A stretch of 64,000 nucleotides of DNA, taken from NCBI RefSeq assembly GCF_023701345.1, contig NZ_JAMPXE010000002.1:14109-78108 (forward strand). The letters are read 5' to 3'. Source of the DNA: Rhodoferax sp. Its GTDB lineage: Bacteria; Pseudomonadota; Gammaproteobacteria; Burkholderiales; Burkholderiaceae_C. The notes under the pieces are model-generated. The model had not been told where the DNA came from. It was given only the letters and a program-made list of their open reading frames with translations, and ran no database searches. A program made the position numbers and the translations under genes. Positions 18,454 through 31,451 of the stretch are shown one piece after another. The first letter of the stretch is position 1; the number at the start of each line of letters is the position of its first letter.

Positions 18454-20715
<2,262 letters not shown>

Positions 20716-20767: not shown

Positions 20768-21706
20768 TCAGGACGGGGACAGCTCAGGCCAATACAAGCG
20801 CATCGGGTTGGCCACCAGCAGCTGGTACTGCAGCGCTGCGGTGGGGGCGATGTGCGGAATAAAGTCGACCAGCAGGCCGTCGTCGGGCATGTGGTCCTTG
20901 AGGTTGGGGTGCGGCCAGTCGGTGCCCCAGAGCACGCGGTTCGGGAACTCTGCAACGATCGCCCGGGCAAACGGCACCACGTCGCGGTAAGCGTTCTGCT
21001 CGCCGTTCAGGGCTTTCGGGCCGGTCACGCTCAGGCGCTCGGGGCAGCTGACCTTGCTCCAGACGTTGGCGTGCTCGCGCATGAATTTCTGGAACAGGGC
21101 AAACTGCGGGCCGTCCACCGGCAGCGACACGTCGGGGCGGCCCATGTGATCGACCACCACGGTGGTGGGCAGCGCCGTAAAAAAATCCCACAGTTCGGGC
21201 AGATCCACCGCTTCAAAATAGATCACCACATGCCAGCCCCAGTGCTTGATGCGCGCGGCAATTTCCATCAGCTCGTCCTTGGGCGTGAAGTCCACCAGGC
21301 GCTTGACAAAGTTGAAGCGAACGCCGCGCACACCGGCGTCGTGCATGGCCTGCAGTTCGGTGTCGCTCACGCTGCGTTTCACGGTGGCCACGCCGCGCGC
21401 CCTGCCTTCTGAATGGATGAGCGCATCGACCAGCGCGCGGTTGTCGGCGCCATGGCAGGTGGCCTGCACAATCACGTTTTTGTCGAATCCGAGGTGGTCG
21501 CGCAGCGCAAACAGCTGCGCCTTGGAGGCATCACACGGCGTGTACTTGCGCTCGGGGGCATAGGGGAACTCGGCACCCGGGCCGAACACGTGGCAATGCG
21601 CGTCCACCGCACCGGCGGGCAATTTGAACGTGGGCTTGGCAGGACCGGCGTACCAGTCCATCCAGCCGGAGGTTTTGGTGAAATCACCTGTGGTGGCTTG
21701 GCTCAT
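20768..21706 (-). CDS. ligI: 2-pyrone-4,6-dicarboxylate hydrolase
   Basis: DAHCHVFGP, VQATCHG, RFNF, DHMGRP, WGTDWPHP. Confidence 0.93.
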   Translation of the reverse strand: MSQATTGDFTKTSGWMDWYAGPAKPTFKLPAGAVDAHCHVFGPGAEFPYAPERKYTPCDASKAQLFALRDHLGFDKNVIVQATCHGADNRALVDALIHSEGRARGVATVKRSVSDTELQAMHDAGVRGVRFNFVKRLVDFTPKDELMEIAARIKHWGWHVVIYFEAVDLPELWDFFTALPTTVVVDHMGRPDVSLPVDGPQFALFQKFMREHANVWSKVSCPERLSVTGPKALNGEQNAYRDVVPFARAIVAEFPNRVLWGTDWPHPNLKDHMPDDGLLVDFIPHIAPTAALQYQLLVANPMRLYWPELSPS

Positions 21707-22635
21707 CGTTCATTCCTTGGTTTGACCTGCGCGAGCATGCGGTCGGCCTCGACACGCCAGTCTGCGCTGCGGGCGAATTCAGGCGTGCCTTTGGGGCCGA
21801 ACACACCGCTGTCGGCCAGATCGGCCACCCAGGCCTGGCGCTCGGCGGTTCCCGACGCTGACCAGGGGGTCAGACCGGCATCACGCACGGTCTCGGCCAC
21901 TTCACGCACTTCTTCGCTGCGGCGTCGGCCATGCTCGATGACGCGTTGAAAGAAATAGGCGGCCTGTTTTTCCCAGTCGATGCCGGGGAAGGTCTCATAG
22001 AGTGAGGCCACCACCGCGTCTTCCACGCCGTAGTGGCGGGCTGTGGTGAAGCTCTCGATCACCATGGCCTCCAGCCCCTTGATCATGACGCTGCGGCACA
22101 TCTTGGTGGCACTGGCCACGCCCAATTGCTCGCTGGCAACCTTGGCGGCAAAGCCCATCGCATTGAGCAGCGGGCACAAGGCATTGGCGTGTGCTCCCCC
22201 CAGCAGCAACGGCACCTTGATGCGGTACGGCGGGATGCTGGTCATGACGGCACCTTCCACATAACGGCCACCGGCTGCGTCGATCGAGGCAGCAGCACGC
22301 TGCTTGGCACCCGGAGAAGCCGAGTTGAAGTCAAGGAAGAAGCTGCCTCGCCGGACTGAGTCGGCACAGGCCTCTGCCACCCGCACGGTCTGGCTGGCAG
22401 TGACCGCGCTGATGATCAGGTCAGCGCCCGCCGCCAATTCACCGCTGGCGCCGAGCAAAGCCACACCATGCTGTGCCGCATGGGTCTGCAGGGGCGCGGC
22501 GGTGTCCGCGTTGTCCAACTTGAGGTCATAGGCGCTGACGGCGATGCTCTGGGCGCGCAGGTCTTCTGCCAGAATGCGGCCCACCTCGCCGTAACCGACC
22601 AGGCCAACGCGCCATTGTTTGGGATCTGTTTGCAT
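21703..22635 (-). CDS. NAD(P)-dependent oxidoreductase (6PGD/3-hydroxyisobutyrate DH-like N-domain, DUF1932-like C-domain)
   Basis: GLVGYGEVG, DFNSASP, KMCRSVMIKGLEA, HGRRRSEE. Confidence 0.8.
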   Translation of the reverse strand: MQTDPKQWRVGLVGYGEVGRILAEDLRAQSIAVSAYDLKLDNADTAAPLQTHAAQHGVALLGASGELAAGADLIISAVTASQTVRVAEACADSVRRGSFFLDFNSASPGAKQRAAASIDAAGGRYVEGAVMTSIPPYRIKVPLLLGGAHANALCPLLNAMGFAAKVASEQLGVASATKMCRSVMIKGLEAMVIESFTTARHYGVEDAVVASLYETFPGIDWEKQAAYFFQRVIEHGRRRSEEVREVAETVRDAGLTPWSASGTAERQAWVADLADSGVFGPKGTPEFARSADWRVEADRMLAQVKPRNER

Positions 22636-22645
22636 GGGGAGGTGT

Positions 22646-23329
22646 TCAGTCGATGTATTTCAGACCGGCTTTCTCCAGGCCTTCGCGCATCTTGTAGTAG
22701 TCGAGCCCGAGCACACCCGAGGCAAAGATGGAGCGCTTGGCGCCTTCGTTGGCCTCGCGCGCCTCGGCTGCATCGGCGACCTGTTGCGCCAGGGCGGCGG
22801 GCACCACCACCACACCGTCGATGTCGGCAATGACGACATCGCCGGGGTTGACCTGGGCGCCGGCGCACACCACGGGCACGTTGACCGAGCCCAGCGTGGC
22901 CTTGATCGTGCCTTTGGCATGGATGGCCTTGCTGAACACGGGAAAGTTCATTTCGGTCAGGTCTTTCACGTCGCGCACGCCGCCGTCGATGACCAGACCG
23001 ACGGCACCACGGGCCTGGAAGGAGGTGGCCAGCAGGTCGCCAAAAAAGCCGTCCGCGTTGTCGGTGGTGCAGGCGGCCACCACCACGTCACCGGGCTGCA
23101 ACTGCTCGGCGGCCACGTGCATCATCCAGTTGTCGCCCGGCTGCAGCAGCACCGTCACCGCCGTGCCGCAAATCTTGGCTTCGTTGTAGATCGGGCGCAG
23201 GTAGGGTTTCATGAGGCCGACGCGGCCCATGGCCTCGTGGATGGTGGCGACACCAAAGCGTGACAGTTTTGCGACCGCTGCCTTGTCGGCGCGGGTAATG
23301 TTGCGTTTGACGATACCGAGCTGATTCAT
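22646..23329 (-). CDS. ligK: 4-carboxy-4-hydroxy-2-oxoadipate aldolase (HMG/CHA aldolase)
   Basis: [32 protein letters not shown]. Confidence 0.93.
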
Positions 23330-23341
23330 ACTTTCTCCTGT

Positions 23342-23893
23342 TCAGGTGGGGGACGGCGCCTGGGTGATGTGCCGCACATGCAGCGACAGGCCAAGCGCCG
23401 CCATGTGGTTGCTGTTGCGACTCAGGATGGTCTCGGACAGGGGCAAAAACTGGGCTTCTTCAAAAGTGGCGTGGGCCTGGTAATCGTTCACCAGTTGCTG
23501 CACGGCGGCGGCATCGAGCAAAGCGGTCTGCCCTTTGGCCATTTTTTTCAGCTGGGGTTCCAGTTTGGCCCACATGGCTTCAATCTGCCGGTGTTCACGG
23601 GTCAACCGGTCGGTGATGGCCTTGACGTGCGTCAGCTCGGCGCCGGGCTCGGCGCTGGCCAGAACGGCTTCAAACAGCACCCGCTCTTCTTCCTCATGGT
23701 GATTGAAGATGACGTCACGAAAGAAGTTGCGCGTGCTCTCGGCGGCCTGACGCGTCCGCTCGGCGGCCTGCGCCTGGGCCGGCAAATCTTCCATGACCGT
23801 CAGTTGCCGCAGGATGCCTTCGTGGCAATGCGAAAAGTTGCTGATGGGGGCGTTATCGGTCGCCATCGGGGGTGATTGGTTTGTGCTGGCCAT
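23342..23893 (-). CDS. Hemerythrin-like (HHE cation-binding) protein
   Basis: His/carboxylate pattern SHCH, HHEEEE, REH and HATFEE in a predicted four-helix bundle. Confidence 0.8.
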   Translation of the reverse strand: MASTNQSPPMATDNAPISNFSHCHEGILRQLTVMEDLPAQAQAAERTRQAAESTRNFFRDVIFNHHEEEERVLFEAVLASAEPGAELTHVKAITDRLTREHRQIEAMWAKLEPQLKKMAKGQTALLDAAAVQQLVNDYQAHATFEEAQFLPLSETILSRNSNHMAALGLSLHVRHITQAPSPT

Positions 23894-23932: not shown

Positions 23933-24964
23933 TCAGTCGGCTTGCCGGCCGGCGAGCCGCGCATCCAGGCGCGGGAACACGCGCCGCGCATTGCCTTCAT
24001 AAATCTGCTGGCGATCGGCATCGCTCAGAAGGGTGCTGGCTTCGATGTAGCGCTTGGTGTCGTCATAGTAATGACCGGTCTCGGGGTCAATACCACGCAC
24101 CGCGCCAATCATTTCACTGGCGAACAGCACGTTTTTCACCGGGATCACGGTGGTGAGCAGATCAATGCCGGGCTGGTGGTAAACGCAGGTGTCAAAGAAG
24201 ATGTTGTTGAGCAGATGCTCTTGCAACAGCGGCTTCTTCAATTCCTGCGCCAAGCCACGGAAACGGCCCCAGTGGTAGGGCACGGCGCCACCGCCATGCG
24301 GGATCAAAAACTTGAGCGTCGGAAAATCCTTGAACAGGTCGCTGGTCAGGCACTGCATGAAGGCCGTGGTGTCGGCGTTGAGGTAATGCGCGCCGGTGGT
24401 GTGGAAACAGGCGTTGCAACTGGTGGACACATGGATCATGGCCGGCAGCTCGTATTCCACCATCTTCTCGTAAATCGGGTACCAATGCCGGTCGCTCAAA
24501 GGGGGCGAGGTCCAGTGGCCGCCGCTGGGGTCGGGGTTGAGGTTGATACCCACTGCGCCATAGTCACGCACACATTTTTCCAGCTCTGGGATGCACGTTG
24601 CCGGATCCACGCCGGGCGATTGCGGCAGCATGGCCACCGGCACAAAGCTGTCCGGAAACAGCTGGCTGACGCGGAAACACAATTCATTGCAAATGGCCGC
24701 CCAGGTGCTGGAGACATTGAAATCGCCGATGTGGTGCGCCATGAAACTGGCGCGCGGACTGAACAGTGTCAGGTCAGAACCCCTGCTGCGCATCAGGCGC
24801 AACTGGTTGGCCTCGATCGACTCGCGCAGTTCGTCGTCGCTGATGTGCAGGTCGGCCGCCTTCGGGCTAAGGGCGGGGTCCTTGATGCCGGCGATTTGCT
24901 GGTTGCGCCAGGTTTCCAGCGCTTTGGGTGCGGTGGTGTAGTGGCCGTGGCAGTCGATGATCAT
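23933..24964 (-). CDS. ligJ: 4-oxalomesaconate hydratase (amidohydrolase fold)
   Basis: MIIDCHGHYT, FSPRAS, HVSTS, HGGG, FASEMIGA. Confidence 0.93.
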   Translation of the reverse strand: MIIDCHGHYTTAPKALETWRNQQIAGIKDPALSPKAADLHISDDELRESIEANQLRLMRSRGSDLTLFSPRASFMAHHIGDFNVSSTWAAICNELCFRVSQLFPDSFVPVAMLPQSPGVDPATCIPELEKCVRDYGAVGINLNPDPSGGHWTSPPLSDRHWYPIYEKMVEYELPAMIHVSTSCNACFHTTGAHYLNADTTAFMQCLTSDLFKDFPTLKFLIPHGGGAVPYHWGRFRGLAQELKKPLLQEHLLNNIFFDTCVYHQPGIDLLTTVIPVKNVLFASEMIGAVRGIDPETGHYYDDTKRYIEASTLLSDADRQQIYEGNARRVFPRLDARLAGRQAD

Positions 24965-24993: not shown

Positions 24994-27532
<2,539 letters not shown>

Positions 27533-27536
<4 letters not shown>

Positions 27537-28084
27537 GACTTCACCCCGCTTTGCGCCGCGCTCATGCGCCAGTGAAAACTCACCATGTAGAAACCAGCCA
27601 GCGCCATCAGCAGAAACCCGGGCACCATCAACACCTGGGCAACCCAGATTGGCCAGCCCAGAATCATGCTGGTCTCACCCGCCTCCTTGATCGCCAACGC
27701 CCCCACGGCGGCGCGCCAGGTGATCAGCGCCCCGAACAAGCCCACCAGCAGCGAGCCAAAAGCATCAAGGCGATGCACCGTGGCCGGACTGGCCTTGGCG
27801 GTGAAGAAGTCCACCTTGACATCACCGCCATTGAGGTGGCAGTAAGAAAAAAAGCTGGCCGAGGCAAAAGCGGCCGCCATTTGCAGCATTTCGACATCGC
27901 CGGGCACCGGCGCGGCAAACAGCTTGCGCCCGACAATGCTGATGATGCTCATGACCACGATGGCCACGAACATCAGGCCGCCCATGATGGCCGACACTTT
28001 GGAGGCGCGAAACAAAATTTGGCCTATAGGACCAAAGGCAAGCGAAGCGGCACCAGGGTCGGCACCGGGAATGGGCTCATGCAT
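27533..28084 (-). CDS. TRAP transporter small permease (DctQ)
   Basis: About four TM segments, PVPGDVE, DVKVDFF. Start ATG 28084. Confidence 0.85.
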
Positions 28085-28187
28085 GAACACTCCTACTCTG
28101 ACGCTGCCATCCAGGGACGCATCAAATGGTTGAAATTGGGGGATGACCTGTGTGACGCACGCCACCCAGGTCGAGCCGACAGCTTGC

Positions 28188-29222
28188 TTACTTGACCGCG
28201 TACTTGCTGATCAAGGCGCGTGCGTTTTCCAGCAGCAACTTGCCGTTGGCACCTTTGGCGGTGACATCTGCCACCCAATCCGTGGTGATTTGCTCGCTCG
28301 CCTTTTTCCAGCTTTGGAGCTCTGAGGCAGGAATCACGTTGTGGGTGTTCTTTTCGGTCAGCTTCTTGCCAATGCCATCGGCCGCCAGAAAGGTCTTGCC
28401 GACCTGACCTGACAGGGCCTGGCCGCTGTTGGCGTCGATCACCTTTTTCAGGTCAGGCGGCAGGCTCTCGTATTTGGCCTTATTCATGGCAAAAACGAAC
28501 GTGGAGGTGTAAATGGCGGGCTCGGCCGGGTCGGTCTCGGAATGGAACTTGACCAGCTCCTGGATCTTGACCGAAGGCACCACTTCATAGGGCACCAGGG
28601 CGCCGTCGATCACCGACTTGGCCAGGGCCTCGCTCACGGCCGGCACCGGCATGGCCACGGGGGTGGCACCCAATGCGGCCAGCAGCTTGTTGGTCTGGCG
28701 GGTCGGGGCACGGACTTTCAGACCCTTCAGGTCAGCCATGGTTTTGATGGGTTTGTTGGTCATGTGAAACACGCCATCGCCATGGACGTGCAGCGCCAGC
28801 AGCTTGACATCCTTGAACTCGGCGGCCACGTTCGGATTGGTTTGAACAAAGTCCCACAGCGCCTTGCTGGTGCCCTCCGGGCTTTGCATCATGAAGGGAA
28901 GCTCGAACACTTCAGACAAGGGGAAGCGACCCGCCATGTAGCCGGGCAACACCCAGGTCACATCGACCACGCCGTCCTTGACCTGGTCAAACAGCTGCGG
29001 CGGTGTGCCACCGAGCTGCATGGACGGGTAGATCTGGCATTTCATTTTGTCGCCGGATTCCAGGGCGATCTTGTCGCACCAGGGCTTGATGAACATGGTC
29101 TGGGCGGCCGAGCCGGCCGGCAGGAAGTGGTGCACCTTGAGCGTGACCGTCTGCGCTGAGGCGCTGAGTGCGGCGCAAGCCAGCACTGAGAGTGCCGCGA
29201 AGGATTTAAATGATGCTTTCAT
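28188..29222 (-). CDS. TRAP transporter substrate-binding protein (DctP)
   Basis: Signal peptide, YPSMQLGG, DLKGLKVRAP, GATPVAMP. Confidence 0.92.
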   Translation of the reverse strand: MKASFKSFAALSVLACAALSASAQTVTLKVHHFLPAGSAAQTMFIKPWCDKIALESGDKMKCQIYPSMQLGGTPPQLFDQVKDGVVDVTWVLPGYMAGRFPLSEVFELPFMMQSPEGTSKALWDFVQTNPNVAAEFKDVKLLALHVHGDGVFHMTNKPIKTMADLKGLKVRAPTRQTNKLLAALGATPVAMPVPAVSEALAKSVIDGALVPYEVVPSVKIQELVKFHSETDPAEPAIYTSTFVFAMNKAKYESLPPDLKKVIDANSGQALSGQVGKTFLAADGIGKKLTEKNTHNVIPASELQSWKKASEQITTDWVADVTAKGANGKLLLENARALISKYAVK

Positions 29223-29280: not shown

Positions 29281-30405
29281 TCAGCGCGCCGAGGCAGGGC
29301 CGGACCAGATCGTGGCGGGCACCATGACCTCGCCCCGCATGATCAGGCGTGCCGTGCGCAGCAAGGCCGCTTGCGTCACTTGCTGCGGGTCTTGCGGGTC
29401 CAGCCCCAGGGCCACGCTGAATTCTCCGGTGGGGTGCTCGACCGATACCGTGGGCGCGTTGCCCGGCTGCATCACGGCCACGCCGTCGCACACCGAGCCC
29501 TTGAGCACACAGGCGGTCCCCACCGTGACGGCGGCCAGCACGCCAATGGCGTCATGGCACACATGCGGAATAAAACTGCGGGTGTTGATGCTGCCACCGG
29601 CGCGAGGCGGCGCAATCAGCGTCATTTTGGGATAGTTCTTTTGCGCCACATCGCCCAGGCCCATCTTGCGCGAAATCTGCAAACGCAGCGCTTCCAGGCG
29701 GCGCTTCAGGTTGTCATCGGCATTGAGTTCGGCCACGCTCTCATAACCGGTGCGGCCCATGTCGGCAGCTTCGATCAGCACCAGCGGCATGCCGTTGTCA
29801 ATGCAGGTCACATCGAGCGTAAAGGGGGCAAAATTTTCGCCAGTGACCGTGATGGTGTCACGTACCTGCCCTGTCGGCAGCAAGCTGGAACACACCGAGC
29901 CGGCGGTATCCAGAAAATTGATGGTGACTGGCGCGGCACTACCTGGAACGCCGTCAATGCGGGCGTCGCCACCGTAATTCACCCGGCCGCCTTGCGTGGC
30001 CACCGTGATGTCGCACTGCATGCCGGTGTTGAGGGTCAGCACGCGCGCTGTGGTGGTGTCACCCTGCACGGGAACCAGGCCGCGCTCGATGGCAAAGGGC
30101 AGCACGGCAGCCAGCATGTTGCCGCAGTTGGGCGTGGTGTCCACGGTGTCGCGCTCGGGCTGCAACTGGGCAAACAAAAAGTCCACCGCCACACCGGGCG
30201 TTTGACTGGTGCTGACGATGCCGACCTTGCTGGTCAGCGGGTGCGCGCCGCCCAACCCGTCGATCTGGCGCCGGTCCGGCGAACCCATCACCGCCAGCAG
30301 CACCCGGTCCCGCGTGGCCACGTCAGCAGGCAAATCCGAGGCCAGAAAAAATGGCCCGCGTGAGGTGCCACCGCGCATGAAATAACAGGGAATGGGAGTT
30401 TGCAT
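29281..30405 (-). CDS. ligU: 4-oxalomesaconate tautomerase (PrpF/LigU/GalD family)
   Basis: MRGGTSRG, QIDGLGG, TSKV, NCGNM, CIDNG, HDAIG, EHPTG. Confidence 0.88.
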   Translation of the reverse strand: MQTPIPCYFMRGGTSRGPFFLASDLPADVATRDRVLLAVMGSPDRRQIDGLGGAHPLTSKVGIVSTSQTPGVAVDFLFAQLQPERDTVDTTPNCGNMLAAVLPFAIERGLVPVQGDTTTARVLTLNTGMQCDITVATQGGRVNYGGDARIDGVPGSAAPVTINFLDTAGSVCSSLLPTGQVRDTITVTGENFAPFTLDVTCIDNGMPLVLIEAADMGRTGYESVAELNADDNLKRRLEALRLQISRKMGLGDVAQKNYPKMTLIAPPRAGGSINTRSFIPHVCHDAIGVLAAVTVGTACVLKGSVCDGVAVMQPGNAPTVSVEHPTGEFSVALGLDPQDPQQVTQAALLRTARLIMRGEVMVPATIWSGPASAR

Positions 30406-30463
30406 GGGGCGGATTTTGACGATATCTGCCGACCTTCAAAAGCCAATCAAGCCACTACCAGAT

Positions 30464-30495
30464 ATAACAACTTGGCATAATTGGCATCTTGTTAT
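30464..30495. promoter_or_regulatory. Candidate LysR binding region
   Basis: T-N11-A at 30465-30477, inverted ATAACAA/TTGTTAT, and TTGGCAT repeated directly, between the divergent ligU and LysR genes. Confidence 0.4.
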
Positions 30496-30542
30496 GGTTA
30501 ACCCTTAATCCCACAACACAGACACTTCACCGACGACAGCCC

Positions 30543-31451
30543 ATGGACCTGAAACAACTCGAATACTTTGTGCGCGTGGCCGAGCTTGGCAGTTTTACCC
30601 GCGCCGCCATTGCCCTGAACGTGGCGCAACCGGCACTAAGCCGTCAGGTGCGCCTGCTGGAAGTGGAGCTGCGGCAAAACCTGCTGACGCGCAACGGCCG
30701 CGGCGCCTTGCCCACCGAGGCCGGCAAACTGCTGCTGGCGCATGGTCGCGGCATCCTGCACCAAGTGGCACGTGCACGTGAAGAGTTGGGCCGGGTGCGC
30801 GGCTCGCTGGCGGGCAGAGTGGCCGTGGGCCTGCCGACCAGCCTGGCGCGGGTGCTGACCGTACCGCTGATCCGGGCCCATCAAACCGAATTGCCCGATG
30901 CCACGCTGGCCATCAGCGAAGGCTTGTCGATGCCCATGCAGGAGTCGCTACTGGCCGGGCGGCTCGACATTGCGGTGCTCTACAACGCCCAGCCCAGTTC
31001 CGACATCGACATCACCCCGCTGCTCGAAGAAGACCTGCTGCTGGTGCAACGGCGCCCGCCCGGTCTGGCCGAAGAACCGCCACCCGGCCCCATCACACTG
31101 CGCGAACTGGCCCGCTTGCCGCTGGTCATCCCGACCCGGCCCAACGCCATCCGCATGCAGGTGGAGACCGAACTCGCCAACCTGGGTTGTCGCCTGAACA
31201 TGGCACTTGAAATTGATGGGGTATCCGCGATTCTGGATCTGGTGGCAGACGGAGCCGGCAGCGCCGTGCTGTCGCGCAACGCAGTGGCCAGTTCGATCCG
31301 GCCCTCCGCATTCACCGTGCGCACCATCACGGACCCGGTATTGCGCACCAAAATCTGCATGGCCACCAGCGCACTTAGGCCCACCACACTGACGCAGCAA
31401 GCCACGCTGGCGCTGCTGCAGCGCACGGTGCAGCAGGTTTTCAAGCTGTAA
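30543..31451 (+). CDS. LysR-family regulator of the lig cluster
   Basis: MDLKQLEYFVRVAELGSFTRAA...QPALSRQ. Divergent from ligU. Confidence 0.92.
   Translation: MDLKQLEYFVRVAELGSFTRAAIALNVAQPALSRQVRLLEVELRQNLLTRNGRGALPTEAGKLLLAHGRGILHQVARAREELGRVRGSLAGRVAVGLPTSLARVLTVPLIRAHQTELPDATLAISEGLSMPMQESLLAGRLDIAVLYNAQPSSDIDITPLLEEDLLLVQRRPPGLAEEPPPGPITLRELARLPLVIPTRPNAIRMQVETELANLGCRLNMALEIDGVSAILDLVADGAGSAVLSRNAVASSIRPSAFTVRTITDPVLRTKICMATSALRPTTLTQQATLALLQRTVQQVFKL

Follow-up and report, generated by a model that had tools for sequence, protein, structure and literature searches.

Why should a hemerythrin-like gene lie between ligJ and ligK, inside an operon that already encodes every step of protocatechuate 4,5-cleavage? 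The question is raised by a stretch of 64,000 nucleotides (nt) from Rhodoferax sp. (NCBI RefSeq assembly GCF_023701345.1, contig NZ_JAMPXE010000002.1, positions 14,109 to 78,108 of the forward strand), which is referred to below as the window and in which positions are counted from the first letter. The gene, here called Hr, occupies positions 23342-23893 on the minus strand. Hr is a lineage-specific accessory and not a core component of the lig/pmd pathway. Its product would, in the reading that we favour tentatively and somewhat short of an even chance, be a low-oxygen-response di-iron accessory that keeps the Fe(II) centre of the extradiol dioxygenase LigAB working, by protection or reactivation and through a chemistry that we infer. 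The arrangement ligJ-Hr-ligK appears to be an organisation of the lig operon for which no description exists in the literature searched.

The Hr gene and its place in the operon

The open reading frame (ORF) of Hr encodes 183 amino acids between an ATG start and a TGA stop. Its G+C contents at codon positions 1, 2 and 3 (0.65, 0.42 and 0.77) resemble those of ligJ and ligK, for which third-position values of 0.79 and 0.83 were obtained; a 168-aa ORF overlapping Hr on the plus strand was rejected as a gene and assigned as a shadow ORF. Hr is more than a chance ORF, because 790 homologues were found among 5.8 billion proteins searched and because 14 genomes share the order ligJ-Hr-ligK, on one strand and with gaps of ~9-120 nt. 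In the window, the gap from the ligJ stop to the Hr ATG is 39 nt and that from the Hr stop to the ligK ATG is 12 nt. The latter spacer (23330..23341, minus strand) was read directly: the TGA is followed by ACAGGAGAAAGT and then by the ATG of ligK. The first-pass annotation of this DNA had given the same 12 nt, but had let the ribosome-binding site of ligK overlap the end of Hr; the Shine-Dalgarno sequence of ligK, AGGAGA, sits in the spacer, just past the Hr stop. Neither a sigma-70-like promoter nor an intrinsic-terminator-like site was found on the operon strand from pobA to ligK.

The minus-strand unit has the order ligU(PrpF)-dctP-dctQ-dctM-pobA-ligJ-Hr-ligK-DUF1932 oxidoreductase-ligI-ligA-ligB-ligC, with a divergent LysR gene. 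Protocatechuate 4,5-cleavage is complete without Hr, as LigAB, LigC, LigI, LigU, LigJ and LigK are all encoded in the unit; the idea that Hr supplies a missing pathway enzyme was rejected because every step is already accounted for.

Domain, ligands and predicted structure

Hr matched the Pfam family PF01814 (Hemerythrin HHE cation binding domain) with an E-value of 1.4e-15 and 58.3 bits (gathering cut-off 25.3), the match spanning residues 16-152 of Hr and positions 2-126 of the 127 in the profile. Together with the short gaps on either side and the gene order kept in the 14 genomes, this match bears out the earlier description of Hr as a metal protein of the hemerythrin-like kind whose gene belongs to the operon. 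PF01814 is the sole Pfam domain of Hr; neither a ScdA_N domain nor an N-terminal Cys pair was found, and none of the NCBIfam models, RIC included, matched at E<=0.1.

The ligand set H...HxxEE...H...HxxxEE, reported in the first pass, is present. H24 lies in SHCHEG, the second motif is H65-H66-E67-E68-E69-E70, H101 stands in EHRQIE105, and the fourth motif is H141-A-T-F-E145-E146. The predicted metal ligands are H24, H65/H66, E69/E70, H101, E105, H141 and E145, giving the pattern H / HxxxE / HxxxE / HxxxE, or 4 His and 3 Glu; His or Glu ligands, by which PF01814 is defined, are thus found on all four helices. The signature of the canonical O2 carriers, H...HxxxE...HxxxH...HxxxxD, is a different one: helix 3 of Hr carries H101-R-Q-I-E105 and helix 4 carries H141-A-T-F-E145. 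According to PMC9388753, all known O2-binding hemerythrins use 5 His, Glu and Asp, with HxxxH on helix 3 and HxxxxD on helix 4.

In an alignment of 55 family members, with a mean column identity of 55%, residues H24, H65, H66, E69, E70, H101, R102, E105, Y138, H141, E145 and E146 are invariant and C23, the single conserved Cys of Hr, is nearly so. A C-terminal tail beyond the Pfam domain (residues 149-175, FLPLSxxILSRNSNHMAALGLSLHxRH) is conserved on a par with the ligand motifs; about half of its positions are invariant, among them H163 and H172. The 15 N-terminal residues are non-conserved. An AlphaFold2 model of Hr is all helical (predicted local distance difference test score of 86), with helices at 25-34, 37-80, 85-119 and 128-157.

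The sole solved structure detectable by sequence is that of NMB1532 from Neisseria meningitidis (PDB 2P0N; profile E=1.7e-7, single-sequence E=2.5e-5), an uncharacterised structural-genomics protein of 172 aa, close in length to Hr. Residues 8-148 of Hr align to 10-147 of the chain, including the CH, the HHE-EE, the His of helix 3 and the HxxxEE of helix 4. The deposited structure of NMB1532 contains metal ions, which were modelled as Mn and not as Fe (PMC2954221). NMB1532 lacks the conserved tail of Hr and has no known link to catabolic operons. Hr is predicted to be an HHE hemerythrin-like protein of the cytoplasm, with four helices and a site for two metal ions, probably di-iron; we infer iron as the metal.

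Genomic contexts of the family and capture by the lig operon

The Hr family is compact and occurs in the Burkholderiales and the Azoarcus/Thauera group. Those of the 790 homologues that carry a name are called 'hemerythrin domain-containing protein' and come from Rhodoferax and other Burkholderiales; a tblastn search of plasmids with Hr gave one weak match (28% identity). Scanning one genome per species yielded 346 relatives of Hr, of which the best 80 loci were examined; the resulting tree has 86 rows. Neighbouring genes were called with a home-made gene picker based on third-position G+C content and were clustered, a tblastn panel was run, and Pfam was used only for key neighbours.

The ligJ-Hr-ligK context accounts for 14 of the 86 rows and is found in Rhodoferax, in one 'Polaromonas' metagenome-assembled genome (MAG) and in one MAG labelled Thiomonas. 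A further 12 rows are gentisate-type clusters that end in Hr (FAD hydroxylase, Cupin_2 dioxygenase, FAA hydrolase, glutathione S-transferase (GST), DctPQM, Hr); these come from the window's own genome, Thauera, Aromatoleum evansii, Azoarcus and an Oxalobacteraceae MAG. The largest group (32 rows, mostly Hydrogenophaga) consists of stand-alone genes between purL-DUF808 and a U32 peptidase gene. Nine rows, from Rhodoferax and relatives, follow narGHJI and a gene for a PpiC-type rotamase, and five, from Ottowia, Rubrivivax and other Burkholderiales, lie near coaD. A divergent paralogue of the window's own genome, in a cluster with a tripartite ATP-independent periplasmic (TRAP) transporter and CoA-dependent beta-oxidation-like genes, makes up one row and has no oxygenase nearby; the remaining 13 rows are short contigs or could not be assigned to a context.

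Hr had been suspected to be no standard pmd/lig component, and the distribution confirms this. Across an even sample of the family (301 genomes, 166 genera), ligK was found in 179 genomes and the Hr family in 45, and the two were adjacent only in the window's genome (1/179). Within the genus, ligK occurs in nine genomes besides the window's own, and Hr stands beside it only in G000, G003 and G006 (3/9). In the complete same-genus genome G020, ligJ and ligK overlap and Hr is not between them (locus L107, G020:C1:2362000-2381999). Among the lig-linked copies, Hr identity is 59-90%, that of LigJ 84-96% and that of LigK mostly 92-96%. Since it is absent from most ligK loci and less conserved than LigJ and LigK, Hr is a faster-evolving accessory gene and no core enzyme.

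In the maximum-likelihood tree the lig-linked copies form one clade (support of 100 in the Shimodaira-Hasegawa-like approximate likelihood ratio test); the insertion into the lig operon therefore took place once. The clade of nar-linked copies adjoins it (support 88). Gentisate-linked copies are placed elsewhere in the tree, mixed with purL-type copies, and the association with gentisate operons therefore arose independently.

FNR-type promoters of the stand-alone relatives

The regions upstream of the relatives contain an exact palindrome, TTGAYNNNNRTCAA, located 52-174 nt upstream of the Hr match. This box precedes Hr in 32/32 purL-type loci, 6/9 nar-type loci and 8/13 unclassified loci, and in none of the 13 lig and 12 gentisate loci. 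It is largely confined to such positions: the loci, 1.17 Mb in all, contain 51 exact boxes, and 46 of these are sites upstream of Hr copies. For the stand-alone and most of the nar-linked copies the box has the form TTGAY-N4-RTCAA and stands 21 nt ahead of a TAGACT -10 element. In all 32 purL-context loci (L042-L102; for example, L049:9821-10030), TTGAC-N4-GTCAA is followed after 21 nt by cTAGACTg, then by GGAGAC and the ATG. When 14 upstream regions were aligned, they were otherwise unalignable (mean identity 35%), and the conserved islands ahead of the ribosome site and ATG were the box and the cTAGACTg 21 nt downstream of it.

A class II FNR-dependent promoter has a TTGAT-N4-ATCAA-like box centred near -41.5. 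The spacing of box and TAGACT places the centre of the box ~41 nt upstream of the likely transcription start, and the promoters of the stand-alone relatives are predicted to have this class II FNR-type layout. In the window's own genome 27 exact boxes were found in 3.4 Mb; the intergenic ones include a box 52 nt before a gene for a COX1-family (ccoN-like) oxidase and one 74 nt before a DcuA/DcuB transporter gene. Genes for ccoN-like oxidases and for the DcuA/DcuB anaerobic dicarboxylate transporters are hallmark members of FNR regulons. From the conserved layout of box and -10 element, and from the same box at the ccoN-like and dcuB-like genes, the stand-alone relatives are predicted to be low-oxygen regulon genes, controlled by FNR or by a Dnr/NnrR-type regulator. 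No FNR-type box was found within 220 nt upstream of the Hr of the window, nor in the likely operon promoter region, the intergenic stretch 30406-30488. The literature searched holds no description of FNR-type promoters for this family.

Role of Hr

Branches of the Hr family recur in the lig and gentisate operons, which each encode both a flavin hydroxylase and a ring-cleavage dioxygenase of the Fe(II) type. That separate branches did so, and that the stand-alone relatives have FNR-type promoters, makes a link to O2-dependent iron enzymes plausible, as the first-pass annotation had supposed. With stand-alone relatives under predicted low-oxygen promoters, Hr is likelier to be a helper for such enzymes than a pathway enzyme.

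The proposed course of events is as follows. One Rhodoferax lineage captured a copy of Hr between ligJ and ligK, and in other lineages copies came to lie at the ends of gentisate operons. Both times, the FNR promoter would have been exchanged for substrate-induced co-expression with the flavin hydroxylase and the Fe(II) dioxygenase. In the window Hr would be transcribed within the LysR-controlled unit ligU-dctPQM-pobA-ligJ-Hr-ligK-(DUF1932)-ligIABC. Its product would sustain the labile Fe(II) of LigAB under limiting or fluctuating O2, with nitrate respiration going on at the same time. To this end, small oxidants or ligands, such as O2-derived species, nitric oxide (NO) or nitrite, may react at the di-iron site; alternatively, Hr may re-reduce or re-supply the iron of LigAB. 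Hr would then be a functional counterpart of the XylT-type ferredoxins of catechol 2,3-dioxygenase.

Several observations weigh against this reading. The ribosome site of Hr itself is weak (AGGT) and does not suggest high abundance, and a Foldseek search with the Hr model gave no informative structural match. Nearly all relatives have a complete protocatechuate pathway without Hr. For most members of the family the setting is a non-oxygenase one (next to purL, following narGHJI, or another), and the cluster on contig C59 of the window's own genome, which holds the divergent paralogue, has no oxygenase; a role specific to LigAB is therefore not supported. Finally, narG tended to accompany the lig-embedded copy (10/15 against 1/5), but this is a trend only (Fisher p=0.13) among related genomes, and we have dropped it as support.

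A broader form of our reading, in which the whole family would be a dedicated FNR-controlled di-iron maintenance factor for labile mononuclear Fe(II) oxygenases of facultative anaerobes, and would protect or reactivate LigAB and gentisate dioxygenase in microoxic, denitrifying settings as a non-ferredoxin counterpart of XylT, is possible but doubtful.

It is unlikely that Hr is instead a reversible O2 store or shuttle, which would buffer O2 or hand it to PobA and LigAB under microoxia. Low-O2 induction of the stand-alone relatives, as predicted from their class II FNR-type promoters, would suit such a function, as would the presence of copies in two kinds of operon that each have two O2-consuming enzymes, and a precedent exists in the Anr-regulated O2-binding hemerythrin Mhr (bioRxiv 10.1101/802934). 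The 4 His and 3 Glu of Hr, however, differ from the 5 His, Glu and Asp of the known O2-binding hemerythrins, and the polar or charged invariant residues that adjoin the ligands (C23, E100, R102, Y138 and E146) hardly point to a pocket that is hydrophobic throughout. For a protein needed in abundance the ribosome site is weak, and O2 supply does not account for the position of relatives after narGHJI. Protection or reactivation is preferred over O2 carriage because the ligand set is non-canonical and close relatives follow narGHJI; plain O2 delivery, among the options first listed for Hr, is weakened by the same ligands.

The position after narGHJI leads to a further alternative, namely that Hr is mainly a YtfE- or NorA-like di-iron protein that would remove or convert the nitrite or NO arising in the cytoplasm from nitrate respiration, and that in the lig operon would keep NO off the NO-avid Fe(II) of LigAB. 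Members of the clade that is sister to the lig copies directly follow narGHJI-ppiC, the boxes also fit NO-responsive regulators of the Dnr/NnrR type, and the family is confined to denitrifier-rich lineages (Rhodoferax, Hydrogenophaga, Thauera, Aromatoleum, Azoarcus); the tendency of narG to accompany the lig-embedded copy points the same way. At its di-iron site, YtfE reduces nitrite and binds NO, and YtfE is a poor iron donor (PMC9052748). Hr, on the other hand, has no ScdA_N or di-Cys domain and left the RIC model unmatched, the narG trend falls short of significance, the nar-linked copies seem to possess a promoter of their own and not to be operon members, and the purL-context copies have no neighbours related to nitrogen oxides. 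A mainly nitrite- or NO-handling Hr thus does not seem likely to us.

A sensory or regulatory function, with the di-iron site reporting O2, redox state or iron and the tail acting on the LysR or MarR regulator or on an enzyme, is improbable. PMC9388753 describes many bacterial hemerythrin domains as sensors, and a tail conserved like the ligand motifs suggests a conserved interaction surface; yet Hr consists of a single domain and lacks an output domain, no partner gene recurs across the five contexts (lig, gentisate, nar, purL and coaD), and the regulators vary with the context (LysR, MarR or none). That Hr contributes nothing to the pathway and is a passenger, a low-oxygen gene that was duplicated, landed between ligJ and ligK and was kept by linkage, would fit its absence from nearly all lig clusters and its faster evolution, but is very improbable for a gene that is intact, with all ligands invariant, in 14 species-level genomes in which Hr identity drops to 59%, and of which other branches were independently placed in gentisate dioxygenase operons, an argument for selection.

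Comparison with known systems

The model for a maintenance function comes from outside the hemerythrins. XylT-type [2Fe-2S] ferredoxins are said to reactivate catechol 2,3-dioxygenase, in work attributed to Polissi and Harayama (1993) and to Hugo and colleagues (1998). XylT is an operon-encoded, non-catalytic accessory that the pathway chemistry can do without but that restores the oxidised iron of an Fe(II) extradiol dioxygenase, and it may serve as a functional model for Hr, by analogy only: XylT has the plant-type ferredoxin fold with four Cys, whereas Hr is a helical bundle with a predicted di-metal site and one conserved Cys.

Among hemerythrins, the bacteriohemerythrin McHr has been proposed to supply O2 for particulate methane monooxygenase. 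Like Hr, McHr and Mhr are single-domain proteins and proposed helpers of O2-requiring processes in microoxia; they are under FNR/Anr-type control, and the relatives of Hr likewise have FNR-type promoters. Both have the canonical 5 His, Glu and Asp, whereas the Hr family has HxxxE in place of HxxxH and of HxxxxD. Mhr, which is Anr-regulated, supports the microoxic fitness of P. aeruginosa (bioRxiv 10.1101/802934). YtfE/RIC shares with Hr a non-canonical hemerythrin-like di-iron domain, predicted in the case of Hr, and is tied to nitrate/nitrite respiration and to damage of iron enzymes. It differs in having an N-terminal ScdA_N domain with an electron-delivering Cys pair; Hr is single-domain and lacks it.

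Reports of hemerythrin-like genes in ben/box and phthalate clusters date back to the early 2000s, and a function for them is still to be demonstrated. COG3945 hemerythrin genes occur in ben/box clusters, that of Rhodoferax ferrireducens included, with a role stated to be unclear (Suvorova & Gelfand 2019, PMC6449761, which cites Gescher 2002). In the phthalate clusters of Comamonas and Delftia, an HHE gene is called 'ophH' (PMC5031561, PMC3318190). The ben/box and ophH proteins have been suggested to act as an O2 store, as a scavenger or in protection (PMC6449761, PMC5031561, PMC3318190). They resemble Hr in being small HHE proteins encoded in oxygenase-dependent aromatic clusters of facultative Betaproteobacteria, but their pathways use a benzoyl-CoA epoxidase or a Rieske dioxygenase, whereas the Hr operon uses extradiol cleavage by LigAB. 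A likely ben-cluster-type protein of genome G020, presumably equivalent to the published one, is ~33% identical to Hr, and its gene has 2-oxoacid:ferredoxin oxidoreductase-like genes (recognised by eye) as neighbours; by sequence it appears to form a subfamily separate from Hr. No functional study joining a hemerythrin with protocatechuate, ligK, gentisate or an extradiol dioxygenase was found in the literature searched, which holds passing mentions only; nor does that literature describe any hemerythrin-like gene within an operon for protocatechuate 4,5-cleavage.

Other genes of the operon and observations on related loci

The genes flanking Hr on the minus strand were assigned as follows. 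ligJ (23933..24964) encodes a 4-oxalomesaconate hydratase of the amidohydrolase_2 family, identified by PF04909 (2.6e-53) and its conserved position in lig clusters. ligK (22646..23329) encodes a 4-carboxy-4-hydroxy-2-oxoadipate aldolase / oxaloacetate decarboxylase and matched the NCBIfam equivalog model TIGR02798 (6e-124; 411.9 bits, cut-off 304.5). The first-pass annotation had PobA and LigAB in the operon, and both were recovered: PobA, an O2-consuming flavoprotein of the 4-hydroxybenzoate 3-monooxygenase type (24994..26208), by Pfam (FAD_binding_3, 1.2e-94), and the Fe(II) extradiol dioxygenase subunits LigA (20272-20715) and LigB (19404-20270) by their ORF positions and Pfam-annotated orthologous loci. 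For LigA and LigB, as for the dehydrogenase LigC (18454-19407, GFO_IDH_MocA), the orthologue of locus L013 was used and the start was refined. The start was also refined for ligI (20768-21706), whose product is a hydrolase (Amidohydro_2, 6e-55). Upstream of pobA lie the TRAP transporter genes dctM (26205-27536), dctQ (27533-28165, with a start perhaps at 28084) and dctP (28188-29222), called as ORFs with the Pfam domains DctM, DctQ and DctP on L013, and the first gene of the unit, ligU, for a PrpF-family isomerase (29281..30405; ORF, with PF04303 on the L013 orthologue). All of these are on the minus strand. The divergent gene on the plus strand (30489..31451) encodes a LysR-type regulator (ORF, with HTH_1 and LysR_substrate on the orthologue).

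Between ligK and ligI lies a gene for an NAD-binding / DUF1932 oxidoreductase-like protein (21703..22635, minus strand; DUF1932 6e-18, NAD_binding_2 1.5e-8). Next to Hr, it is the operon's second accessory gene, and most lig-clade loci keep it; in L013 and L023 it is absent and ligI directly follows ligK. In L107 the DUF1932 gene and ligI are set apart by ~5 kb of short, unrelated ORFs, two of which resemble a toxin-antitoxin pair.

Two paralogues of Hr are found in the window's own genome. One, 54% identical to Hr, ends a MarR-controlled gentisate-type cluster on contig C152 (L020:1247-8540) that includes a GST isomerase. The other, the divergent copy on contig C59 (L021:3418-16456; 44% identity), lies in a CoA-dependent acid catabolic cluster with genes for a small VOC protein, DctP, a fused DctQM, an NAD-epimerase, SDR, Hr, an acyl-CoA dehydrogenase, ECH/3HCDH and a thiolase, with a CoA-transferase gene on the opposite strand. 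The order narGHJI, PpiC-type rotamase, Hr is seen at L070:9075-10552 and in eight similar loci from several Rhodoferax genomes. Another type of cluster (L103, G020:C1:196000-215999; L106, G003:C19) combines a gentisate-dioxygenase-like cupin, DctPQM, Hr, a family III CoA-transferase, an HMG-CoA-lyase-like protein and the large and small subunits of an aconitase-family enzyme (the small subunit identified by eye); it seems to be an undescribed pathway for a product of ring cleavage.

Copies of Hr follow dctM in gentisate clusters and the lig unit has a TRAP system, for which reason Hr was also considered as a general TRAP-transporter accessory. This was rejected: TRAP genes are near none of the nar- and coaD-context copies and near only one purL-context locus (L018, with a TAXI-TRAP system 2 kb away).

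Two loci probably carry binning or labelling errors. The lig-linked Hr protein of L016 (GCA_028710795.1), a MAG labelled 'Thiomonas arsenitoxydans', is identical to that of a Rhodoferax MAG, and L061 (CALRVR020000010.1), on a contig of a 'Synechococcus sp. UW140' MAG, is a Hydrogenophaga-type purL-DUF808-Hr locus. As to the nitrogenase that the first-pass annotation attributed to the host, nifH is present in the genome, split over two contig ends (C73:7-597 and C36:80808-81161), one of which lies 2.7 kb past the end of the window; the remark adds nothing specific to the reading of Hr.

Implications

The new comparative facts are a single capture by the lig operon, an independent capture by gentisate operons, and the class II FNR-type promoters predicted for the stand-alone relatives. 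The lig-Hr locus is a tractable case, as it offers a small gene between two well-understood enzymes and simple pathway assays. If Hr had no effect on the dioxygenases, it would be an ordinary lineage-specific accessory. If it does protect or reactivate them at low O2 or in the presence of NO, this would bear on the degradation of lignin-derived aromatics at oxic-anoxic interfaces and on the stabilisation of LigAB-type enzymes in engineered lignin-valorisation strains. The maintenance-factor reading, if true, would also explain why hemerythrin-like genes recur in the aromatic catabolic clusters of Betaproteobacteria.

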